Positions 1,139 to 36,938 of a stretch of 37,872 nucleotides of DNA are shown piece by piece. Location of the stretch: positions 1 through 37,872 of IMG/VR virus record IMGVR_UViG_2563366845_000004; one strand, given 5' to 3'. The notes beneath the pieces were generated by a model. That model was not told the DNA's origin and searched no databases. It worked only from the letters and a program-made list of their open reading frames with translations. Source of the stretch: a virus (Duplodnaviria > Heunggongvirae > Uroviricota > Caudoviricetes). Each line of letters begins with the position of its first letter. Positions within the stretch are counted from its first letter, which is position 1. Both the position numbers and the translations under genes were made by a program.

Positions 1139-2128
1139 TTACTCCTGTGCTTTTTCAGCGGTACTTGGCTTTAGTTTTTCTTTGGTTGAATCCCATAAAG
1201 ATTGGATTCCCGGAGGGAGTTCTGTTTTGTCAGAAAATGCAGAGTTACCAGACATATTCCAGTCTTTAAAGACTAACACAGCATCTTCTTTTGTTGACGT
1301 GGAACCATAAATTTGCAGGAATACTTGCCCAAACATTAGTGCATGTCTTCTATCTTTTCTCAAAATTGATTCATGGGTATATTTTTTAGAGTTTCCAAGG
1401 CAAATATATGCTAGCCAAGAAAGAATGGAAATACCAATTAAACCACGTGTGAAAAAATAAAATAGCTCAAAGCCTTTAACATTGTTGAAGTCAATTGTGG
1501 CGTAGAGTGTATAAAATGATGCACATACAGCAAGTAGCCCGAAAATGCAGCCAGTAAAAGCCCATACTTGCGACATTTTAATGAAATATAAGTCATCTGA
1601 ACTTAGTTCACTTTTAACGCTATCGACATATCCTGGTATTTTCTCATCAATCCTTTCTTGTTGTACTCGGCTTTGTAATTCGCTGTTAGATGCTTCAAGT
1701 TGCTTTATTCTAGATACGGCTTGCTCAATAATTGCTTCTTTTTCAGAATTTAGTTTTTCTAAATTTTCATTCCGAAGATGTAACGTAGCTTTGGACTCTT
1801 CAGCCTCCAATAAACGTTTGGTATATGATCGCATTATCTCTCGAAGATGTTTTTGTTCTTTTATTAATTCATCTATCTTGTTGTTTTCATTAATAAAAAT
1901 ATCTCCAACTTTATCGCTGTAGTTCATTTTTTCTTGCTGGGTTAATTTCCAGTAGTATTCTCTGAATTTATCAATTTCACCTTTTTTTAATAAGTCGATT
2001 AAGTAGGCGCGCTCATTTTCATTAAATTTATGCGGATTTTCATTTAAAATATTATAAAGATCTTTCCATTCGCAATTAACTTTTTCAACATAATCGATGT
2101 TTTCATTTTTTTTATTTTCAGAATTCAT
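1139..2128 (-). CDS. Hypothetical coiled-coil / multi-pass membrane protein (lysogeny-operon moron; candidate superinfection exclusion or abortive-infection protein)
   Basis: ORF 1139..2206; probable start ATG at 2128 (MNSENKK...) with AGGAA RBS, 10 nt after the repressor stop codon. K/E-rich heptad-like N-terminal region, then three hydrophobic helices (e.g. VWAFTGCIFGLLAVCASFYTLY, LIGISILSWLAYICLG). Strongly AT-rich compared with neighbours. Confidence 0.6.
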   Translation of the reverse strand: MNSENKKNENIDYVEKVNCEWKDLYNILNENPHKFNENERAYLIDLLKKGEIDKFREYYWKLTQQEKMNYSDKVGDIFINENNKIDELIKEQKHLREIMRSYTKRLLEAEESKATLHLRNENLEKLNSEKEAIIEQAVSRIKQLEASNSELQSRVQQERIDEKIPGYVDSVKSELSSDDLYFIKMSQVWAFTGCIFGLLAVCASFYTLYATIDFNNVKGFELFYFFTRGLIGISILSWLAYICLGNSKKYTHESILRKDRRHALMFGQVFLQIYGSTSTKEDAVLVFKDWNMSGNSAFSDKTELPPGIQSLWDSTKEKLKPSTAEKAQE

Positions 2129-2138
2129 GTATGTTCCT

Positions 2139-3077
2139 TTAAATTTCCTTTGAAAAAACGCAACAACATTTTGCGATGGTTGTAATGTCTTCAAGCTTAC
2201 AAACAAAATCAGTTGTATCTGATGTGATTTTTACTTTTCCAACTGGAATTCTTGTTAATTTTCTTAAACTTACTTTACCTTCAATCTCAATCAACCAACT
2301 ACCATCTGAAACATCATCATATTCTGTATCTGCAATAAAGGTTTTTCCTTCTGCGGTAACTCCAATCGGTTTTTTCAATCCGGAAGGTATAAGCGTCTTG
2401 TCAAATGCTAAGTAGCCTTCATCATGTAATTTACCGTCAATGATTGTTTGGTGTTTAAGTTGGGCTACAGAGCTGGAATTATCGAAAAATTTGGGGCCAT
2501 TGCCGTTTGTGAGCCAGAGTAATGAAGCTCCTGTTTCAAGAGCGCATTGAATGATCCAATCGCTAGGAAACGTGTCTCGTAAGTACCTGTTTGCTACAGT
2601 GCTTTTTGAAACCTGCAAATGGTTTGCTAGGGCTTGTCGGGTGCTAAAGCCGTAGGCTGCGACTAAGCGATCAATTGCCGCCTTCCCTCCTTTATTAGGA
2701 TTTATGCTGGTCTCGATTGGGAACTTTTGGACTGTTGAGTTAGTTCTATCCGGGTCATCAGATTTGGTATGGGCTAAACGTTCATCATTTAATAAAACTG
2801 AGGGTGATTCACAGCTGATTCCTGATGCCAACCAGTCGATAGATGCGCCGGTCTCTATACTGCAAATTATCACCCAGTCAGCAGGAAATGTGTCACGAGC
2901 ATACCTGTTAGCCATCGTGCTTTGTGAGATACCCAGATGATTGCAAAATGCTTGCCGCGAAGTAAAACCATACGCAACAAGTATACGCTCAATTACTTTC
3001 TGTCCCCCACGGTTTTGCATTATTGAAGTTTTTAGACTCTCGCTAACATGGCGAAATGTGTTTTTTTGAGTTGACAT
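2139..3077 (-). CDS. cI: 186 CI-like immunity repressor with tandemly duplicated N-terminal HTH domain
   Basis: 312 aa; two consecutive copies of the CI N-terminal domain (…ERILVAYGFTSRQAFCNHLGISQSTMANRYARDTFPADW…ETGASIDWL… and …DRLVAAYGFSTRQALANHLQVSKSTVANRYLRDTFPSDW…ETGASLLWL…), then a C-terminal region resembling the 186 CI C-terminal domain (SDGSWLIEIEGKVSLRKLT). Divergent from the apl-like gene. Confidence 0.7.
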   Translation of the reverse strand: MSTQKNTFRHVSESLKTSIMQNRGGQKVIERILVAYGFTSRQAFCNHLGISQSTMANRYARDTFPADWVIICSIETGASIDWLASGISCESPSVLLNDERLAHTKSDDPDRTNSTVQKFPIETSINPNKGGKAAIDRLVAAYGFSTRQALANHLQVSKSTVANRYLRDTFPSDWIIQCALETGASLLWLTNGNGPKFFDNSSSVAQLKHQTIIDGKLHDEGYLAFDKTLIPSGLKKPIGVTAEGKTFIADTEYDDVSDGSWLIEIEGKVSLRKLTRIPVGKVKITSDTTDFVCKLEDITTIAKCCCVFSKEI

Positions 3078-5220: not shown

Positions 5221-6074
5221 GCACCATCCTGAAATGGGCGGGAAATAAAACCGCAATTATGTCCGAACTGAAAAAACACCTTCCTGCTGGCCCGCGACTG
5301 GTTGAACCTTTCGCGGGTTCCTGTGCTGTGATGATGGCGACGGATTATCCAAGCTATCTGGTTGCGGATATTAATCCTGATTTAATCAACCTCTATAAAA
5401 AGGTTGCCGCTGATTGTGAATCGTTTATATCTCGCGCCAGAGTTTTATTTAAGGAAGCAAACAGGGAGGTGGCTTATTACAACATAAGGCAGGAGTTTAA
5501 TTACTCAACTGAAATTACTGATTTCATGAAAGCGGTATATTTCCTGTATCTCAATCGTCACGGTTACCGTGGTTTATGTCGCTATAACAAGAGCGGGCAT
5601 TTCAACATTCCCTACGGTAATTATAAAAATCCGTATTTCCCTGAAAAAGAAATTCGCGCATTTGCAGAAAAAGCCCAGCGGGCAACGTTTATCTGCGCCA
5701 GCTTTGATGAAACGCTGGCGATGTTGAAGGCGGGGGATGTGGTGTATTGCGATCCGCCGTATGACGGCACGTTTTCCGGTTATCACACTGACGGCTTCAC
5801 TGAAGATGACCATTATCACCTGGCATCCGTTCTTGAACATCGGTCATCAGAAGGACATCCGGTCATTGTTTCTAACAGTGACACATCCCTGATCCGTTCG
5901 CTGTATCGCAATTTTACTCACCACTACATCAAGGCAAAACGCAGCATCGGCGTAGCAGCTGGTGAGAGTAAATCTGCAACAGAAATCATCGCTGTTTCTG
6001 GGGCGCGCTGCTGGGTGGGATTTGATCCTTCGCGTGGCGTGGATAGTTCTGCCGTGTACGGAGTGCGTGCATGA
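5217..6074 (+). CDS. dam: DNA adenine methyltransferase (Dam-type N6-adenine MTase, orphan)
   Basis: N-terminal ILKWAGNK...PFAGSCAV (AdoMet-binding) and catalytic DPPY motif ([10 protein letters not shown]); start is an internal ATG of ORF 5157..6074. Confidence 0.85.
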
Positions 6075-8485
6075 GCCATGCTGATATGAACAACTGCAGC
6101 GGCTTTAACGAGGCCGCCGCAGCATTCTCATGGAACAGCCCGAAAAAGTCTATTAACCCTTATCTGGACCCGGCGGAAGTTGCGCCGGTTTCTGCGCTTT
6201 CAAACCTGATCACTCTGTACGCTGTCGATAACGAGCAGGAACAACTGCGTCGCGAGGCACTGAGTGATCAGGTCTGGGAGCGTTATTTCTTTAATGAATC
6301 CCGTGATCCTGTCCACCGCGAAATGGAGCAGGATAAGCTCATTAGCCGGGCAAAGCTGGCGCATGAGCAGCAGCGTTTTAATCCAGATATGGTCATTCTG
6401 GCGGACGTCAATGCCCAGCCTTCCCATATCAGCAAGCCGCTGATGCAACGTATTGAATACTTCAGCAGCCTGGGCAGGCCAAAGGCTTATTCCCGCTATT
6501 TGCGTGAGACGATTAAGCCATGTCTGGAACGACTGGAGCATGTACGCGACTGTCAGCTATCCACTTCTTTTCGCTTTATGGCAAGCCATGAAGGGCTGGA
6601 CGGCCTGCTGATCCTGCCTGAAATGAGTCAGGATCAGGTGAAGCGCCTGTCTACCCTTGTCGCCGCGCATATGAGCATGTGCCTTGATGCAGCTTGTGGT
6701 GATTTGTATGCCACCGATGACGTTAAGCCAGAAGAAATCCGCAAGACATGGGAAAAGGTGGCAGCGGAAACCCTGCGTCTGGATGTTATCCCGCCTGCGT
6801 TTGAGCAACTCCGTCGGAAAAGAAACCGCCGTAAACCCGTGCCTTATGAACTCATTCCGGGTTCGCTGGCGCGTATGTTATGCGCCGACTGGTGGTATCG
6901 GAAATTATGGAAGATGCGTTGCGAATGGCGGGAAGAGCAGTTGCGTGCTGTTTGCCTGGTCAGCAAAAAAGCATCTCCCTATGTCAGCTATGAAGCCGTG
7001 ATGCATAAACGTGAGCAGCGCCGTAAGTCGCTGGAGTTTTTCCGTTCTCATGAACTGGTGAACGAAGACGGCGACACGCTGGATATGGAAGACGTGGTAA
7101 ACGCCAGCAGCAGCAACCCTGCGCATCGCCGCAATGAGATGATGGCCTGTGTTAAAGGTCTGGAGCTTATCGCGGAAATGCGCGGTGACTGCGCCGTTTT
7201 CTACACCATCACCTGTCCGTCACGTTTCCATTCCACGCTAAATAACGGCAGGCCCAACCCGACCTGGACAAATGCGACGGTAAGACAAAGCAGTGATTAT
7301 CTGGTCGGTATGTTTGCTGCATTTCGTAAGGCGATGCACAAAGCCGGATTGCGCTGGTATGGCGTGCGGGTGGCTGAGCCGCATCATGACGGTACAGTTC
7401 ACTGGCACCTGTTGTGTTTTATGCGCAAAAAAGATCGCCGCGCCATTACTGCTTTGTTGCGTAAGTTTGCCATTCGTGAAGACCGCGAGGAGCTGGGTAA
7501 TAACACGGGACCACGCTTTAAGTCTGAGCTGATAAACCCGCGCAAAGGTACGCCAACAAGCTACATCGCGAAATACATCAGTAAGAACATTGACGGGCGT
7601 GGTCTGGCTGGCGAGATCAGCAAGGAAACGGGTAAATCCCTGCGTGATAACGCTGAATACGTTAATGCCTGGGCGTCTCTGCATCGTGTTCAGCAATTCC
7701 GCTTCTTTGGCATTCCGGGGCGTCAGGCTTACCGTGAACTGCGATTGCTGGCTGGTCAGGCGGCAAGGCAACAGGGGGACAAAAAAGCAGGTGCGCCGGT
7801 ACTGGATAACCCGCGTCTTGATGCCATCCTGGCTGCTGCTGATGCTGGTTGTTTTGCCACCTACATCATGAAGCAGGGCGGCGTACTGGTTCCCCGCAAA
7901 TATCACCTCATCAGAACCGCTTATGAAATCAACGAAGAGCCGACCGCCTATGGCGATCACGGCATTCGTATTTATGGCATCTGGTCACCCATTGCAGAGG
8001 GCAAGATCTGCACTCATGCGGTGAAGTGGAAAATGGTTCGTAAGGCCGTTGACATTCAGGAGGCGGCAGCCGACCAGGGCGCTTGCGCCCCTTGGACTCG
8101 TGGCAATAACTGTCCCCTTGCTGAAAATTTGTACCAACAAGGGAAAGACAAATCAGCTGATGGAGATACCAGAACGGATATCACCCGTATGGATGACAAG
8201 GAGTTGCACGATTACCTGCACAGTATGAGCAAAAAAGAGCGCCGGGAACTGGCAGCAAGGTTACGCCTGGTGAAACCGAAACGGCGTAAAGACTACAAAC
8301 AGCGAATTACAGATCATCAGCGACAGCAGCTCGTGTATGAACTGAAGTCCAGGGGATTTGATGGCAGCGAGAAAGAGGTCGATTTACTCCTTCGCGGCGG
8401 CAGTATTCCATCAGGAGCAGGCCTGCGTATCTTCTATCGGAACCAGCGTTTGCAGGAAGATGATAAGTGGCGGGATCTGTATTAA
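6071..8485 (+). CDS. Replication initiation endonuclease (P2 gpA-like rolling-circle initiator)
   Basis: 804 aa; HUH-type motif (VHWHLLCF) and downstream tyrosine-containing region (YIAKYISKN); size and position as P2 gene A. Confidence 0.85.
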
Positions 8486-8638: not shown

Positions 8639-8827
8639 ATGCAGGACTATTTTTTGGAGTCTTTGAAGCTCCAGCGCATTGATTTTTTTCTTAAGCTTGT
8701 AGCGGCTAGTGAGTGTAGTGATGAAGAGAAGGGGCTGGCTCTGCAGTGGGTTTCTGAATTGACTGATGAACTCATGGCAAAAATCAGAAGCCACGAATAC
8801 AACCGCTCAATGGATGTCATCAGCTGA
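8639..8827 (+). CDS. Small SOS-regulated protein (possible Tum-like antirepressor N-terminal part)
   Basis: 62 aa, strong AGGAGG RBS, immediately downstream of the LexA box and followed 10 nt later by a DinI-like ORF. Confidence 0.5.
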   Translation: MQDYFLESLKLQRIDFFLKLVAASECSDEEKGLALQWVSELTDELMAKIRSHEYNRSMDVIS

Positions 8828-8837
8828 GGTGACTTTT

Positions 8838-9071
8838 ATGCGCATTGAAATAATGATCGATAAAGAGCAGAAAATTAGCCAGTCTACCCTGGACGCCCTT
8901 GAATCCGAGCTTTACCGCAGTCTGCGCCCCCTGTATCCCAAAACGGTAATTCGTATCCGCAAAGGTAGCTCTAACGGTGTGGAACTGACCGGACTGCAAC
9001 TGGACGAAGAAAGAAAACAAGTGATGAAAATTATGCAGAAGGTGTGGGAAGACGACAGCTGGCTGCATTAA
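8838..9071 (+). CDS. DinI-family protein (DinI/Tum C-terminal-like)
   Basis: 77 aa beginning MRIEIMIDKE... and ending ...QKVWEDDSWLH, matching the DinI fold signature; GAGGTGA RBS. Confidence 0.75.
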   Translation: MRIEIMIDKEQKISQSTLDALESELYRSLRPLYPKTVIRIRKGSSNGVELTGLQLDEERKQVMKIMQKVWEDDSWLH

Positions 9072-9683: not shown

Positions 9684-9956
9684 ATGGCGATTTTTGATAA
9701 ACAGCAGGCCATAAAAAAACTAACAGAAAAAAATGCTTTATTACCATGCCATAGATGTGGGAATAAGTCATTTGGAATTGTTGATGGAGTGACTTCCTAT
9801 TCATTAGTTAATGATCCAAATATGATAGGTAGTGTGATTGTTGGAGGAGCCTCTCTGCCTGTGTTACATGTTTTTTGTGAAAACTGTGGAGCCTTAACTT
9901 CTCATTCTTTGGGCATTCTAGAACTATTACCAAAGGAAGACGAAAATGGGGGGTAG
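9684..9956 (+). CDS. Small zinc-ribbon protein (CxxC...CxxC), first gene of a two-gene cargo cassette
   Basis: 90 aa with CHRCGN ... CENCG; AT-rich; overlaps the downstream gene by 11 nt (ATGGGGGGTAG). Confidence 0.5.
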   Translation: MAIFDKQQAIKKLTEKNALLPCHRCGNKSFGIVDGVTSYSLVNDPNMIGSVIVGGASLPVLHVFCENCGALTSHSLGILELLPKEDENGG

Positions 9957-10416
9957 TACTTTTAACTCTACGGTGAATGGTGAAAAATCTCCTGCAGTAA
10001 CACCCTCGCAAGTTATTATTAATGAGGACGGGGATTTTACTGATAAAATAGTTAGACAGACTAAAGTTGAAGTTATAGTTATTAGCGATGATAAGTTGCA
10101 TATAATACTGACGAATTGCCTTGGTAGAATAACAAGTTTAAATAAATGGACTACTCCGCTTGGTATCTTAGTTACGCTTGCAGTAACTATGTTAACAACA
10201 AATTTTAAGGAATTTATCCTTAGCGCACATGTCTGGGAAGCTATGTTCTGGATTATTACAATACTCAATGTGGTATGGCTAATTAAGTCCATCCCTTACA
10301 GGCACATATGGATTGAGTTTCTTCATTTCTTTGGCAGAGGAGAACAGATGAAAAGTATTCGAGATGTTAGGCATATAATAGAAAAAATAAAGAGTGGTGA
10401 TACTGGAATTAATTGA
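9946..10416 (+). CDS. Small membrane protein, second gene of the cassette
   Basis: 156 aa with two hydrophobic helices (LGILVTLAVTMLTT; AMFWIITILNVVWLI); AGGAAG RBS; translationally coupled to the zinc-ribbon gene. Confidence 0.5.
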   Translation: MGGSTFNSTVNGEKSPAVTPSQVIINEDGDFTDKIVRQTKVEVIVISDDKLHIILTNCLGRITSLNKWTTPLGILVTLAVTMLTTNFKEFILSAHVWEAMFWIITILNVVWLIKSIPYRHIWIEFLHFFGRGEQMKSIRDVRHIIEKIKSGDTGIN

Positions 10417-10807
10417 TCTATATGGCGAACTAAAACAAATTTATGTCATATCATAGCCCTCTCAGTAGGAGGGCAATATTTGCTAGGATCACAAACTGAC
10501 ATGAAGCCCCTATTTTCTTTCGGACTCTTTTGCCACAAGTTCCATAGTGTCTTCGTATGTTCCCTCTTGCTGGAAAAAAATCATGCCGGAATTCTGTTTC
10601 TGAATGGCGCAGGATTTTGGGTAAGGCTCAATCAGTTGTGAGAATAATTGCCAACTTTCGATCCTCGCTCGTTGCGGACTTTCTTCTTTGTAAAACCGTA
10701 TGTTTCGTTTTTCAAGTGGTCATTCAGATACGGATTTGCACTTCCTTTGGCAGTACATGACTATGCCGCATGAGATCGCATGATCGTTTGAGGATCGTTT
10801 TTGCTAA

Positions 10808-10835
10808 GGTCCGCCAGAACTGGCGGGCTTTTGCG
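10808..10835 (+). terminator. Rho-independent terminator-like hairpin
   Basis: CCGCCA-GAAC-TGGCGG stem-loop followed by GCTTTTGCG. Confidence 0.45.
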
Positions 10836-10877
10836 TAGATCATGCACCTGCATGAAAACTACTACATAAAGCGGGCA

Positions 10878-10896
10878 GGCGTGGCGGGGATACGAG
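10878..10896. other. Candidate cos (cohesive end) site
   Basis: GGCGTGGCGGGGATACGAG followed by GCGCGC; the first 13 nt match the P2/186 cos ends as I remember them (GGCG[A/T]GGCGGGGAAAGCA). Confidence 0.35.
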
Positions 10897-11107
10897 CGCG
10901 CGCAACGGGGTTAAATGGCGAAAATCCGGCGCAATCTCCGGTACGTTGACAACTTCTGTCTAAATTGCAGGTAAAAGGAGAGCACTCTGCAGAATGCTGC
11001 TGAGCAGCTAATAGCGCAGGTGTTGCCGATGCGAACAGAACTTGCTGAAAAACTCTGTGAGCAGTAACTTGTGCTCAAGTACCTAATAAATTCGATAAGG
11101 ACTGAGT

Positions 11108-12547
11108 ATGACGCCAAAAGTTTTTATATCATATAGTTGGAGTAGCCCAGCTCATAAGGAAAGAGTTAAAGCAATAGCTGATAGACTTTTGAGTGATGGA
11201 GTGGATGTTGTCATTGACATATATGATTTGAAGGAGGGCAATGATAAAAACGCATTCATGGAAAAAATGATTGTTGATAAAAGTATCACCAATGTGCTTG
11301 TGATGTGTGATTCAGTTTACGCAAAAAAAGCTGATAACAAACAAAGTGGGGTTGGCACAGAATCCCAGATCATCTCTCAACAAGTCTACACAAAAGTCGA
11401 ACAATCAAAATTTATACCTATTGTTTGTGAATTTGATGAGAATTCAGAACCTTGTCTTCCTGTTTTTATGAGTTCGCTAATATGGATTGACCTTTCAACA
11501 CCAGAAAAAGAAAATCAAAATTGGGAACGGTTAGTAAGGCTGCTTAATGGAAAACCAGCAGATATAAAACCTAAGCTTGGAAAAAGACCAAGTTATTTAG
11601 ATAGTGGGCAATATGATCCGGTGAGTGAACCACACGCAAAATTTAATAGCTTGAAACAAGCTGTTTTGCAAAATAGGGCAGGTGTTAGTTATTATCGGCG
11701 TGATTTCGTTGATTCAGTAGTCAAGTACCTTGACGGGATGAGAATCCGAGCTCGCCCAGAGCAAAATGATTTACAAAGCATGGGTAGGAAAATAATTAGC
11801 GACGTTGCTGCCATGAAGCCTATCAGGGATTATGTGTGTGAATGGATAACTCTTGAGGCAGAGTTTACGATGCAGGATGAATTTTCAACAGAACTAGTAA
11901 AGTTCTTTGAAAAAGTTCTGTTACTAACCGAAGCTCCTAGCGATGTCAGTTCATGGCAATTAAACTGGTATGATGCACAAAAGGTATTTGCATACGAAAT
12001 TTTCTTATATTCAGTTGCTATATTGATTAGATTAGAGAAGTTTCAATTAGTACGTGCGATTTTATCTGCCAGATTCCTTTCTGGTGATAGGCAGTTACCA
12101 CCGGAACATAGACTCGTGTCAATTAGCGCTTTCTTAGCTGATTCTGAAACGCTACAGGCAGGTTTTGAAGAAGATATAAGGTATTACTCTCCAGTTGCAG
12201 AGCTAATTAAAAGAAATGCAGATAGGGAAGATATTACCTTTTCTGATCTTATGCAGGCTGATGTGCTAGTTCTTTTTTATTCATTTTGTAATGATGGTGT
12301 CTATTGGTATCCATGCACTATTCATTATGCGAGTTATAATTATAGACCTGAACTATTTTTAAGAGCGACACAGCATAAGTATTTTGAATATTTAGCAATG
12401 ATTGCCGGGATAGCGTCAGCGCAAGAGATCAAATTGAAGGTTAAGGCCGGCGCTCAGAGTATGCATAATTCAGGGGTTAGATATGGACGTATGGGGACTG
12501 GTTTTGAAAGTATGATGAACGCCGATAACCTTGATTTTATAAAATGA
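11108..12547 (+). CDS. SEFIR/TIR-domain protein with an uncharacterised C-terminal domain (candidate single-gene antiphage effector)
   Basis: 479 aa; N-terminus KVFISYSWSSPAHKERVKAIADRLLSDGVDVVIDIYDL...NVLVMCDSVY fits the SEFIR/TIR (STIR) signature; moderately AT-rich; convergent with the portal gene. Confidence 0.65.
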   Translation: MTPKVFISYSWSSPAHKERVKAIADRLLSDGVDVVIDIYDLKEGNDKNAFMEKMIVDKSITNVLVMCDSVYAKKADNKQSGVGTESQIISQQVYTKVEQSKFIPIVCEFDENSEPCLPVFMSSLIWIDLSTPEKENQNWERLVRLLNGKPADIKPKLGKRPSYLDSGQYDPVSEPHAKFNSLKQAVLQNRAGVSYYRRDFVDSVVKYLDGMRIRARPEQNDLQSMGRKIISDVAAMKPIRDYVCEWITLEAEFTMQDEFSTELVKFFEKVLLLTEAPSDVSSWQLNWYDAQKVFAYEIFLYSVAILIRLEKFQLVRAILSARFLSGDRQLPPEHRLVSISAFLADSETLQAGFEEDIRYYSPVAELIKRNADREDITFSDLMQADVLVLFYSFCNDGVYWYPCTIHYASYNYRPELFLRATQHKYFEYLAMIAGIASAQEIKLKVKAGAQSMHNSGVRYGRMGTGFESMMNADNLDFIK

Positions 12548-12550
12548 TGC

Positions 12551-12572
12551 AAGCCGCTCTCAAGAGCGGCTT
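12551..12572. terminator. Bidirectional terminator hairpin between the SEFIR gene and the portal gene
   Basis: AAGCCGCTCT-CA-AGAGCGGCTT perfect inverted repeat in the 29-bp gap between two convergent stop codons. Confidence 0.5.
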
Positions 12573-12576
12573 AGTA

Positions 12577-13614
12577 TTAATATGTCCCTAAAACATATGG
12601 TGCGAATGAAATAATTTCATCTCCGGCCCAATCATTCAGTTCCTGCAGTCGTTTCTGCAATGGCATCAGCTCATTGCGGACAAAGACGAGGCTCGCTTTC
12701 TCTACATCCCCAAATCCCCCAACATTATTAGGCATTATCCCCATCATTTGTGGCGGTACACGGTGCGCAGCCATCATGTCATCACGGCTCACGTTCTTGA
12801 TATTCAGAAACTCATCCTTCGCTGCGACTTCTGACAACGGGATAATCTGAAGTCCGTCCTTTTTGCCGTTAGGCGAGTACATAAACAGATTGCGGAAGTT
12901 GCCAGGGCCTTTGGCGCTTTTCATCGCATTGCGGAGGTTGTTCACATCCTCCTGGTTCTGCGCGGCATCGGTCATGTACATGATGAAGCCTGCATGACTG
13001 CCGTTAATGTAATACTTGCGGCGGAACAGCGTGGCGGACTCGTTGAGCAGGGCGGACGGAATGGCAGAAAGATAACCGGGCAGGCCGTAGATCTCCTGGT
13101 TGATGTCCGGCTCCATCAGATGAAAAATGCTGCCTTTCGTGAACTGATACGGCTGGGTTGTCATACCGTATTGCACAAACCAGTAGGTATCCAGGTCTAA
13201 CCCGCGTCGGGTGTATTTTGCCAGAGCAGGCTCAAGGGCTATAACTTCACCGAAGCAGTTCGTGCGTTTCTCCAGGTAGGCGTTACCAAATACCAGATAG
13301 TCCTGCACAAAACGTGAAAAAGCCTGCTGGCTGAGCAGCGGATGAGGGATATAGGTACTGGTCAGAATGTTGCACTTTACTGCAATCGGGGAACTGTGAT
13401 GCACGGCGGCGCGGAAGGTGCGCGCCAGTCCGTCAAAGCTGACGGGCGGCTCATACCAACGGTCCATCTGTACGCATTCCACATAGTCCAGCAGTTCACG
13501 GCGGTCCAGAACAGGAACGGGATCGCCGAAGCTGAATGCTTCGGCTGTAGTTTGACTTTTAAGCTGGATCTGTTTCGTCGCCGCAGCTCGGTTCTTCTTA
13601 CTCTTTCCCATCAA
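12577..13614 (-). CDS. Portal protein (P2 gpQ-like)
   Basis: 345 aa, P2 Q size; adjacent to and co-oriented with the large terminase, in P2 order. Confidence 0.85.
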   Translation of the reverse strand: MMGKSKKNRAAATKQIQLKSQTTAEAFSFGDPVPVLDRRELLDYVECVQMDRWYEPPVSFDGLARTFRAAVHHSSPIAVKCNILTSTYIPHPLLSQQAFSRFVQDYLVFGNAYLEKRTNCFGEVIALEPALAKYTRRGLDLDTYWFVQYGMTTQPYQFTKGSIFHLMEPDINQEIYGLPGYLSAIPSALLNESATLFRRKYYINGSHAGFIMYMTDAAQNQEDVNNLRNAMKSAKGPGNFRNLFMYSPNGKKDGLQIIPLSEVAAKDEFLNIKNVSRDDMMAAHRVPPQMMGIMPNNVGGFGDVEKASLVFVRNELMPLQKRLQELNDWAGDEIISFAPYVLGTY

Positions 13615-20976: not shown

Positions 20977-21858
20977 TTATTTCATTTCGTGTGGCATATT
21001 TATGGCTTTGATTTTTTCGTGGTAATGATTAAACTCAATATGAGTATTGGTAAAATTAGATTCAAATGTATTCATTAAATTGGAATATAGTGATTCATAT
21101 GATAAGGATACTTTTTTTCCATTTTTTTCTGCAGTTGTGCTAATGTACCTATGTACTGCAGAAAAAAGAAAATGACCTCTAAGCCACTTTCTGTATTCTA
21201 TCGATTTTGATTTGAAAGATGAATCGATGTTATCTGGTTCCACACCTAATTTTTCAATAATGGTGTTTTTGTAATCCGTGATTTTTTGCTCGCAAATTTC
21301 ATTTGATTTTCTAGATTTCATGAAACGATCTGCACTGTCACCAATAACTGAAATGCCTTTTCTATAAATATGATTGTATATATCAAGTTTTATTAGGGGT
21401 TCCATTTTGGTATAAAAGTCTTCTGTCCAAGAATCGATGTTGACATCGTTCATTATCTTTTGCGGTAATTTCCCGAGAGTTTTTATTGCCTTATATATGC
21501 CTGTTTTGTCAATAAATGTGTTTTCGATGGAGTGCCCATAAGTTTTTACAATACGACTATCAGCGTTTTCTTCATTTTCAAATGTAGTGAAGTCTGCATC
21601 ACATGCAATAATAATTTGAAGATCTTCATCAGTAACTCTATCAATATATTTTTTTAATTCTTCACAGCCGCCAACATCTTTGATTTCAACCTTTAATGAA
21701 CTAGCTTTATTAAAGATGATTTCCCAAAAGCAAATATCATCTGGGCCTTCAACATAAACCATGGCTTCAGCTTGGTAAAATAAATTCATTACATTTTCTG
21801 CTTCGGCAGAATAATGGAAATCATCCATGAACCAATTTCTCCATATCAAAGATTGCAT
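20977..21858 (-). CDS. Toprim/DUF4435-like nuclease partner (AriB-like) of a split OLD-family system
   Basis: 293 aa, AT-rich; N-terminal VYVEGPDDICFW (Toprim E-G..D) and IIACDADFT (DxD-like); start may be M1 (21858) or M11 (21828), overlapping or abutting the upstream ATPase gene. Confidence 0.55.
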   Translation of the reverse strand: MQSLIWRNWFMDDFHYSAEAENVMNLFYQAEAMVYVEGPDDICFWEIIFNKASSLKVEIKDVGGCEELKKYIDRVTDEDLQIIIACDADFTTFENEENADSRIVKTYGHSIENTFIDKTGIYKAIKTLGKLPQKIMNDVNIDSWTEDFYTKMEPLIKLDIYNHIYRKGISVIGDSADRFMKSRKSNEICEQKITDYKNTIIEKLGVEPDNIDSSFKSKSIEYRKWLRGHFLFSAVHRYISTTAEKNGKKVSLSYESLYSNLMNTFESNFTNTHIEFNHYHEKIKAINMPHEMK

Positions 21859-23080
21859 TTCGATATTTAGAGGCCACTTCTGGTGAATGCGTAGCGGCGA
21901 TAATTTGTGCGTTAGGGTTAAGTTGTTTGATTGCAGGTATTATTTTTCGTTGCCATGCAATATGTAGTGATAATTCTGGTTCATCAGTAAGATAGATGAA
22001 AGGTTTTTTTTGCTGTAGCAAAGTTTCAATAAAAAGAATTAATAGCTGTTTTTCTCCAGACGATAAATTACTATGGCTAATCGGCCCATGCTCGTTTTCT
22101 ATTACTAGCTCACCGGAGATAAAATTAAATTTTTTATCGGTTATGAACTCATGTAATGTTTCTAAAAATAGATTTATAGGAAGAAATATGTTTTTTATTT
22201 CCTCCTCGGATTTTAAAGACATCTTTATAATTCTTTGCGTCTTTCGTAATGCCTCAAATGATCTGTAATCTACATTTAAAATATTTCTGTTGTTTTTTTC
22301 TGCAAGTCGTAGTTCTTCAAATGTATTGGCAATAGATTCAACGTGAAAGTTAATCTTCTTTCTGACATCGCTATCAAAAGCTCCAAGTTGAGAATATGCA
22401 GCTATTAAATTTCTACGTTCTTTTTCTTTATCAAAAGAAAAGTTAAATGTGTCATCGATACCATCTTCTTTACTATAAAGAATAGAAGCAAGAACCTCTT
22501 TCTGTAATTTTGCAGAAACATCACGAGCTCTTTGTGATAAGTAAAGCTGATATTTTGTTAGATTCTGCAATAATTGTTCTAATCGGTAATCAACGGGGTT
22601 GATTAATTTTGAGCCATATTTGTCTCTGATTTCAAAATCTTCACCGCTTCTAAGTCGGTAAACTGATAGAGAAGATAAAGCAACTAATTTATCTAGCTCT
22701 AACTTAAGTTTTTCAACGTCTTCCTGATATTTTCTCCTCATATATATAGGCAGCCTACGATCTTCAAAGGATCTGATAATATATTTCTTTCTAGAAATTG
22801 TATATTCAAACGTAGGCAAAGCCTTAGTTATGTCAAATTTACTCACAACTTTTATTGTTTTAGTTTTGCTTCCTTCTTTTATTTTTATTGTTACATTATC
22901 AAAACTATTCTCATTTAACGATTCAAGTTCTAATGCCAGAACTGAGTGAAGAATATTCATAAAGGTTGTTTTACCGGTCCCATTTCGACCAATAATAATA
23001 TTTACATCTTCATTAAATGAACATGATGCATTTAGTCTTCCCCAAAAACCTTCAATCTTGACACTAGATAATCTAAACAT
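21821..23080 (-). CDS. OLD/AAA_21-type ABC ATPase (AriA-like)
   Basis: 419 aa; Walker A GRNGTGKTT, ABC signature LSSGEKQ, Walker B FIYLTDEPELSLH, H-loop ATHSPE; AAGGA RBS; AT-rich. Confidence 0.7.
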   Translation of the reverse strand: MFRLSSVKIEGFWGRLNASCSFNEDVNIIIGRNGTGKTTFMNILHSVLALELESLNENSFDNVTIKIKEGSKTKTIKVVSKFDITKALPTFEYTISRKKYIIRSFEDRRLPIYMRRKYQEDVEKLKLELDKLVALSSLSVYRLRSGEDFEIRDKYGSKLINPVDYRLEQLLQNLTKYQLYLSQRARDVSAKLQKEVLASILYSKEDGIDDTFNFSFDKEKERRNLIAAYSQLGAFDSDVRKKINFHVESIANTFEELRLAEKNNRNILNVDYRSFEALRKTQRIIKMSLKSEEEIKNIFLPINLFLETLHEFITDKKFNFISGELVIENEHGPISHSNLSSGEKQLLILFIETLLQQKKPFIYLTDEPELSLHIAWQRKIIPAIKQLNPNAQIIAATHSPEVASKYRNAIFDMEKLVHG

Positions 23081-35252: not shown

Positions 35253-36938
35253 TTATCCTAATCCTGGCCATACCATGACGATGATTGTCCCTGCCAGCGT
35301 CAGCAGGACGTTGGCGATTGCGTAAGTGCCCGCATAGCCCAGCGCCGGGATATTACTGCGAGCTGTATCACTGATGATCTCCATTGCCGGCGCGCAGGTG
35401 CGTGCGCCCATCATTGCGCCGAACAACAGTGCGCGGTTCATTCGCAATACATAAGCACCGAACAAGAAGCAGATAACCACTGGCACCAGACTGACAATCA
35501 ATCCGGCAATCAACATCTGACCGCCAATCGCGCCCAGGCCGTTATTAATACCGCTACCAGCGCTCAGACCAACGCCTGCCATAAACACCATCAAGCCGAA
35601 CTCCTTCACCATGCTTAATGCACCCTGCGGAATGTAACCGAAGGTCGGGTGGTTAGCACGCATAAAGCCCAGCATAATTCCGGCGAATAACAACCCGGCA
35701 GCGTTCCCCATGCCGAAACTGAATGTGCTGAACTGGAAGGTGATCATCCCGATCATCAGCCCAATAACAAAGAAGGCGCAGAATGCCAGCAAGTCAGTGA
35801 CCTGGCTGTGAATCGAGATAAAGCCGATGCGATCGGCGATGGTTTTTACCCGGCGGGCATCGCCGCTGACTTGTAAAACGTCACCTTTGTTAAGCACGAC
35901 GTTGTCATCAATCGGCATCTCAATCTGGCTACGAATGACGCGGTTAAGGAAGCAACCGTGATCGGTCAACTTCAGTTGTGCCAGGCGTTTGCCAACAGCG
36001 TTATGGTTTTTAACGACCACTTCTTCAGTGACGATACGCATGTCGAGAAGGTCACGATCGAAAACTTCTTTGCCATTACGGAAACTGGGATCGAGTCGGG
36101 CGTGGGCGTCAGGATAGCCTACCAACGCTATTTCATCGCCCATTTGTAGTACGGCATCACCGTCTGGATTTGCCAGAATCCCGTTACGCCGAATACGTTC
36201 AATGTAGCAGCCGGTTTGTCGATAAATACCCAGTTCACGCAGATTTTTGCCGTCGGTCCAGGCTACCAGCTCCGGGCCGACGCGGTAGGCGCGGATCACC
36301 GGCAAATAAACCTTACGGTTGGCATCTGTGTCCAGGCCACGTTCGCGGGCGATTTGCTGGGCGCTGGTCTGTAAGTCCTGATGCTGCAATTTCGGCAAGT
36401 AACGCGCACCAACAATCAAACTCACCAGACCGATTAAATAGGTTAAGGCATACCCGAGGCTCAGATTATCCAGTGCCAGTGAGAGCTGCCTGCTTTCCAT
36501 GCCGGAATGACGCAGTGTATCGCCAGCACCGACCAGAACCGGTGTCGACGTCATAGAGCCTGCTAACATACCGGCCGTCAGGCCAATATCCCAGCCAAAC
36601 AGCTTACCTAACCCTAAGGCGATCACCAGCGCACTGCCAACCATCACCAGTGCTAACATTAGGTAATTTTTCCCATCGCGAAAAAAAATGGAAAAAAAGT
36701 TCGGTCCGGCTTCGACCCCGACGCAGAAAATAAACAGCATAAAGCCAAGATTAAGCGCGTCGGTGTTAATGCTGAAATGTTGTTGGCCTAATAACAGCGA
36801 TACGACTAAAACGCCAATGGAATTACCCAGTTGGATCGAACCAAGTCGTAATTTCCCGAGACATAGCCCAAGCGCGAGGACCACAAATAATAACAGAATG
36901 TAATTCCCATTTAACAATTCGGCGACGTTTATATTCAC
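35253..36938 (-). CDS. ybjL: Host putative transport protein YbjL (AAE-family permease with central regulatory domains)
   Basis: 561 aa with multi-pass membrane repeats at both ends and a central soluble region; followed by ybjM and grxA as in E. coli. Confidence 0.8.

Follow-up and report, generated by a model that had tools for sequence, protein, structure and literature searches.

The window analysed here, a stretch of 37,872 nucleotides, carries a P2/Fels-2-like prophage in which a gene with a TIR-like start sits between replication gene A and portal gene Q, next to the cos site. What does this gene encode, and is its place beside cos out of the ordinary for a cargo gene? We consider its product, with a probability of roughly 0.8, to be a single-protein abortive-infection antiphage system of the bSEFIR family, carried as cargo by the prophage.

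The interval contains one intact ORF, the SEFIR gene, at 11108-12547 on the plus strand, encoding 479 aa. The N-terminus of the protein, MTPKVFISYSWSSPAHKERVKAIADRLLSDGVDVVIDIYDL, is the motif quoted in the earlier note, which had set the start at 10897; that position is the first base past the cos 19-mer, 211 bp off the true ATG, and the span 10897-12547 is not divisible by three. The ATG at 11108 is the first start past an in-frame stop and agrees with the N-termini of 52 aligned homologues. The GC content of the gene is ~0.38, versus ~0.55 in the phage core genes. The cassette and its right-hand border are composed of the following features:

10910-11107, plus strand: 5' region of the SEFIR cassette, with the Shine-Dalgarno sequence near its end
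11097-11101, plus strand: Shine-Dalgarno sequence AAGGA, ahead of the SEFIR ATG at 11108
11108-11557, plus strand: SEFIR (TIR-like) domain, residues 1-150, predicted NAD+ glycohydrolase effector
11558-11626, plus strand: linker, residues 151-173, predicted disordered (pLDDT <50 at 154-171)
11627-12547, plus strand: all-alpha C-terminal domain, residues 174-479, and the stop codon; presumed sensor/regulatory domain
12550-12573: G+C-rich hairpin AAGCCGCTCtcaaGAGCGGCTT, picked up in the terminator scan; 6 of the 10 pairs in its stem are GC
12577-13611, minus strand: portal gene (gpQ homologue; phrog_68 portal, 5.7e-175), right-hand boundary of the cargo slot

The 5' region accompanies the gene in the related loci L001 and L002 of E. 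coli and L013 of Citrobacter. A scan for consensus promoters upstream of the ATG returned nothing convincing, and in the alignment of the Citrobacter and window upstream sequences the last ~90 bp are conserved, without clear -35/-10 elements. On the opposite side, the SEFIR and portal genes are convergent and lie 29 bp apart, with the hairpin inside this gap. The terminators tQ of P2 and tW of 186 are annotated at the equivalent place relative to the portal gene, and the hairpin is likely their counterpart, acting as a bidirectional terminator. RefSeq names the portal gene 'phage portal protein' in L001, a locus 99.7% identical to the window.

Profile searches, which the earlier note had suggested as a check on its claims of a SEFIR/TIR start and of membership in the single-gene bSEFIR antiphage family, bear out both. 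The N-terminus matches Pfam SEFIR (4.2e-15, 56.7 bits) and TIR_2 (6.4e-15, 56.2 bits), each above its gathering threshold. SEFIR outscores TIR_2 by a narrow margin only, and this ordering is the one selected by the DefenseFinder bSEFIR rule (an N-terminal SEFIR match scoring at least as high as TIR), as that rule is quoted in the Millman preprint. The PADLOC bSEFIR model (PDLC03957) matches along the full length of the protein at 4.6e-104, aligning residues 2-475 with profile positions 38-382 of 412; these residues cover just 345 positions of the profile, indicating insertions relative to the model. A second full-length match, at 1.7e-139 over 6-478 of 482, is to phrog_11745, a PHROGs family without assigned function, and a search of NCBIfam with the protein gave no match. 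By sequence, the sole solved relative is the isolated SEFIR domain of Bacillus cereus F65185 (PDB 5Y8E/5Y8F; Yang et al. 2018), which is found at 5e-25 with the single sequence and at 1e-38 with the family profile, and which has the motifs FISYSWS, GVGTE and KFIP in common with the window protein. Only this isolated domain has been solved, and there is no structure for the C-terminal domain or the full-length protein.

The remainder of the protein, described in the earlier note as a region of roughly 330 aa without a recognisable motif and possibly a sensor domain, indeed has no Pfam, NCBIfam or PDB match. Structure prediction, which had been proposed there for this part, reveals a separate all-alpha domain. 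In the AlphaFold2 model (mean pLDDT 84), residues 1-150 adopt the alpha-beta fold of SEFIR/TIR domains, and residues 174-479 form an all-helical domain with pLDDT mostly 85-97; comparing the structure of the latter with known folds yielded no informative structural relative. Relative to distant homologues, the C-terminal domain is 40% identical and the SEFIR domain 67%. Such faster divergence than that of the effector is as expected of a sensor, the role that we presume for residues 174-479.

Homologues of the SEFIR protein are spread over many phyla. A search of 5.8 billion proteins returned >3300 matches, and the best 120 of these measure ~473-512 aa, mostly 476-481, with alignments that cover 99-100% of the query. 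Vibrio, Pseudomonas, Ekhidna, Thermotogota and Anaerolineales have proteins of ~45-50% identity, and a homologue from a Firmicute phage (Clostridium phage D-1873) shows 31% identity across residues 2-469. An alignment of 53 sequences contains 67 invariant residues, among them the acidic residues D37, D40, D46 and E85, all of which the window protein carries by construction, being the first row of the alignment. E85 lies in the GVGTE motif and, judging by the position of this motif, may be the catalytic glutamate. When the C-terminal domain alone was compared with 1.84 billion representative proteins, nearly all matches were SEFIR fusions. Among the rest, one metagenomic protein of 649 aa (P0238) starts with a ParA/AAA_31 P-loop domain instead of SEFIR and continues with the bSEFIR C-terminal domain, and a few proteins of ~370 aa have the C-terminal domain with short unassigned N-termini and may be fragments. 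These cases hint, if weakly, that the bSEFIR helical domain could also pair with N-terminal modules of other kinds.

Judged by homology, the most likely mode of action of the window protein is that of the SEFIR protein of Bacillus. In the lysogen, it would be made from its own promoter and kept inactive; upon infection by another phage, the C-terminal all-helical domain would sense a trigger, and the SEFIR domains would oligomerise and cleave NAD+, thereby aborting the infection. Activation by oligomerisation is a prediction, as is activity of the protein in E. coli, which we extrapolate from its relatives. According to the Millman preprint, the Bacillus sp. NIO-1130 SEFIR protein defends against phi29 as a single gene, and its D40A variant, altered at the SEFIR-SEFIR interface, is inactive; this residue is counted in the numbering of the Bacillus protein and need not equal D40 of the window protein. 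Depletion of NAD+ by bSEFIR is reported for the Bacillus homologue in later papers.

The window protein shares with the bSEFIR of Bacillus sp. NIO-1130 (Millman et al. 2022; PDLC03957) the N-terminal SEFIR domain and the single-gene organisation, and both proteins carry a long C-terminal domain without an assigned fold, but the window protein, unlike its Bacillus relative, is an enterobacterial allele on a P2-like prophage. The same logic, an N-terminal NAD+-cleaving domain joined to a larger C-terminal recognition domain and resulting in abortive infection, is found in DSR1/DSR2 and in TIR-domain Avs/NLR-like proteins. However, the effector of the window protein is SEFIR and not SIR2, the protein has neither a STAND NTPase nor a TPR module, and its C-terminal domain is unrelated in sequence and fold. 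In E. coli, single-protein TIR systems have been described as TIR-V, TIR-VI as well as TIR-IX (Wang et al. 2024, PMC11350192).

The surroundings of the gene were resolved by pairwise blastn against related prophages, which defines a mosaic of conserved and variable segments:

to 9081: conserved segment, through the end of the DinI-like gene
6071-8485: replication endonuclease ORF (gene A)
8766-9071: DinI-like gene
9082 to ~10750: slot L, variable
10750-10909: conserved cos block of ~155 bp (blastn), between the two variable cargo slots
10878-10896, plus strand: cos 19-mer GGCGTGGCGGGGATACGAG, candidate cohesive end, from homology to the 186/P2 cos and identity with SEN8
~10910-12590: slot R, variable, holding the SEFIR cassette
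from ~12590-12630: conserved portal segment

The candidate cos site on which the earlier note had relied stands up well. An alignment to the cos junctions of 186 and P2, in circularised form, takes in the 19-mer and ~130 bp on its left; the junction of 186 reads ...TCATGCAACTGCATTAAAACCGACCCATAAAGTGGGCA|GGCGTGGCGGGGAAAGCATTGCGCGC, and that of the window, aligned to it, ...TCATGCACCTGCATGAAAACTACTACATAAAGCGGGCA|GGCGTGGCGGGGATACGAGCGCGCGC. The first 13 nt of the 19-mer are those of the 186 cos (GGCGTGGCGGGGAAAGCAT), a GCGCGC motif follows at equal spacing, and bases 1-19 of Salmonella phage SEN8, annotated as 'putative cos site', are the identical 19-mer. The P2 cos sequence itself was not found in the window with up to 3 mismatches, and the variant present here emerged from inspection of the sequence and from a more permissive pattern. 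We regard the assignment of cos to 10878-10896 as well supported by this homology. Around it, blastn similarity resumes at ~10749-10753 and stops at 10902-10909 in L003, L005, L008 and L009, and spans 10665-10931 in L004. In most relatives, conservation ends 6-13 bp past the 19-mer, and the sequence right of the cos cut therefore seems dispensable for packaging in this lineage. A RefSeq pseudogene of 180-198 bp ('hypothetical protein, internal stop') straddles cos in relatives (L001 4410-4589, L002 3169-3348, L005 7787-7984, corresponding to window ~10770-10950); rather than a gene in decay, this is probably an artefact of annotation.

Both slots vary in content from prophage to prophage. Slot R is filled by an St85 retron in L003, a three-gene cluster in L005, a 294-bp ORF in L004, a SEFIR protein of 43% identity in L008 (Klebsiella phage ST15-OXA48phi14.1) and a fragmented SEFIR gene in L009 (Escherichia phage 500465-1). 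Seen across relatives, the cargo between these flanks may be the St85 retron, a P-loop NTPase, an AIPR or a Hypoth_Ymh protein, or the cluster of three genes. The two slots vary in content independently of each other: the slot-L cassette of the window is paired with the retron in L003 and with the three-gene cluster in L005, and its SEFIR cassette is paired with another slot L in L001 and with an empty slot L in L002. In the window, slot L contains two small overlapping ORFs on the plus strand. The first (9684-9956) encodes 90 aa, with CxxC...CxxC motifs, and matches Lar weakly; the second (9946-10416) encodes a 156-aa protein with two hydrophobic helices, which belongs to phrog_32870, a family without assigned function. 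This pair is a candidate two-gene system and has no PADLOC match.

No other gene accompanies the SEFIR gene in the interval from the cos block to the portal gene, and no conserved partner gene was found among its E. coli, Citrobacter, Hafnia, Klebsiella phage and Vibrio contexts. In P2-like prophages of Citrobacter and Hafnia, homologues of 84% and 52% identity, respectively, follow immediately downstream of the same cos core and converge with the portal gene; the Vibrio homologue (L016) resides in an unrelated chromosomal context. The upstream neighbours of the gene differ among L001, L002, L008, L013 and L014. We also considered a core gene of P2/186 and ruled it out, as neither P2 nor 186 has a counterpart at that place; because it is absent from both, the SEFIR gene is cargo and not a core gene.

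The view that a cargo gene in this position would be unusual does not survive comparison with other P2-like phages. The stretch from gpA to gpQ, "adjacent to the cos site", has been published as the defence hotspot of these phages (PMC9122126), and a 2026 preprint confirms it as the main hotspot of P2. Table S5 of Rousset et al. 2022 (PMC9122126) even contains an arrangement of the type 'hypothetical + TIR_2/SEFIR + DinI'. Moreover, the interval between cos and the portal gene is occupied, with ~0.6-2.9 kb, in 16 of the 17 distinct related Peduoviridae records, e.g., in Fels-2, where it encodes a 566-aa hypothetical protein, in SEN8, where it holds two genes, and in SopEPhi, RE2010 and many Klebsiella phages; the sole empty one is that of Yersinia phage MLG42. 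With the hotspot as known from the tin/old locus (Odegrip 2006, Rousset et al. 2022), the window shares the interval, the adjacency to cos, the low GC and a content that varies among syntenic prophages. P2 and 186 differ in the side that is used: they keep their cargo (tin/old, orf97) between gpA and cos, and the gap between cos and the portal gene, 167 bp in P2 and 176 bp in 186, holds a terminator only, whereas the window, Fels-2, SEN8 and many Klebsiella phages have cargo on the portal side of cos too.

One rival reading is a signalling TIR of the Thoeris ThsB type, which would not deplete NAD+ itself but would synthesise a nucleotide second messenger to switch on another protein, the effector. 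Such a protein would need company, but the slot bounded by cos and the portal gene holds no second gene, the neighbours of SEFIR genes are not conserved across homologues, and the whole protein, including its C-terminus, fits the single-gene bSEFIR model; the PADLOC Thoeris models gave no match at an E-value of 1 or better, and no ThsA-type effector (SIR2/SLOG or TM/Macro) is adjacent, which leaves this reading highly improbable. A lysogenic-conversion gene is a further conceivable kind of prophage cargo, encoding a TIR-type virulence factor (TcpC/Btp-like) that disturbs Toll/IL-17 signalling in animals. We give this hardly any credence: full-length homologues are common in free-living and environmental bacteria, among them Vibrio, Ekhidna, Thermotogota and Anaerolineales, the protein showed neither a secretion signal nor a delivery domain, and the family has been tied experimentally to phage defence.

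The gene may also look intact and yet be a silent or decaying passenger without a current function in the prophage. The lack of a convincing sigma-70 promoter in the scan is compatible with silence, as are the rarity of the allele, which occurs in just 4 of 5426 complete E. coli genomes (further-diverged SEFIR genes are present in approximately nine more), and the fragmentation of the related copy in Escherichia phage 500465-1. Against decay, the ORF is complete and bears every residue invariant in the 53 sequences (as the first row of that alignment must), the four E. coli copies, labelled "SEFIR domain-containing protein" in RefSeq, are 99.5-99.8% identical across the whole cassette, and a Shine-Dalgarno sequence and a terminator are present. 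In addition, P2 elements rarely contain defence pseudogenes, according to the 2026 preprint. On balance, a passenger without function appears improbable, and we favour the abortive-infection bSEFIR protein over it and over the two other readings.

What is mildly new about the locus is that the hotspot comprises two slots flanking a conserved cos block and that diverged bSEFIR alleles recur in the slot on the portal side. Alleles of 99, 84, 52 and 43% identity are all found there; they converge with the late P-Q operon and share one hairpin terminator with it. One could read into this pattern two independently assorting slots, with the ~155-bp cos block as a recombination anchor and a portal-side placement of bSEFIR that recurs for functional reasons, a proposal that we consider unlikely on present grounds. 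If it were true, antisense read-through from the late operon might silence the NADase while the prophage goes through its own lytic cycle, or a location at the far left of the packaged genome might time expression upon entry.

The SEFIR gene is not the only cargo of the prophage. A low-GC (~0.31) insert among the late tail genes, at 20977-23080 on the minus strand, contains a PARIS-like pair, which is the second recognisable defence system of the prophage:

21821-23080, minus strand: AAA_15/AAA_21 ATPase, 419 aa, PADLOC AriA 7.7e-39
20977-21858, minus strand: DUF4435 protein, 293 aa, PADLOC AriB 2.6e-24

Between the integrase (1-1053) and the CI repressor, a position described as a minor cargo hotspot in the 2026 P2 preprint, lies another low-GC (~0.33) gene (1139-2206, minus strand). 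Its 355-aa product matches phrog_2628 (6e-88), a family without assigned function, and has no PADLOC match; its sole Pfam match, to the crescentin rod domain, scores 21.9 bits, below the curated cut-off, and hints at a coiled coil. In the adjoining CI repressor region (2139-3077, minus strand), the longest ORF has 312 aa and two Phage_CI_repr HTH stretches, and CI in a related prophage has 198 aa; the ORF is either an over-long call or contains a duplicated HTH. Beyond the last phage genes, a 561-aa Asp-Al_Ex/TrkA_C transporter is encoded at 35253-36938 on the minus strand. This gene is probably bacterial flank, placing the right end of the prophage near 35.0-35.25 kb.

By its sequence, the protein is a new member of the known single-gene bSEFIR family in a known hotspot, and near-identical copies already carry a SEFIR annotation in RefSeq. 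The main value of the analysis is in annotation: a recognisable bSEFIR, a PARIS-like pair and two unannotated low-GC cassettes make this prophage a multi-defence element of the kind typical of P2-like phages. The enterobacterial bSEFIR alleles would offer a convenient model, native to E. coli, in which to search for the trigger and to approach the structure of the C-terminal domain.
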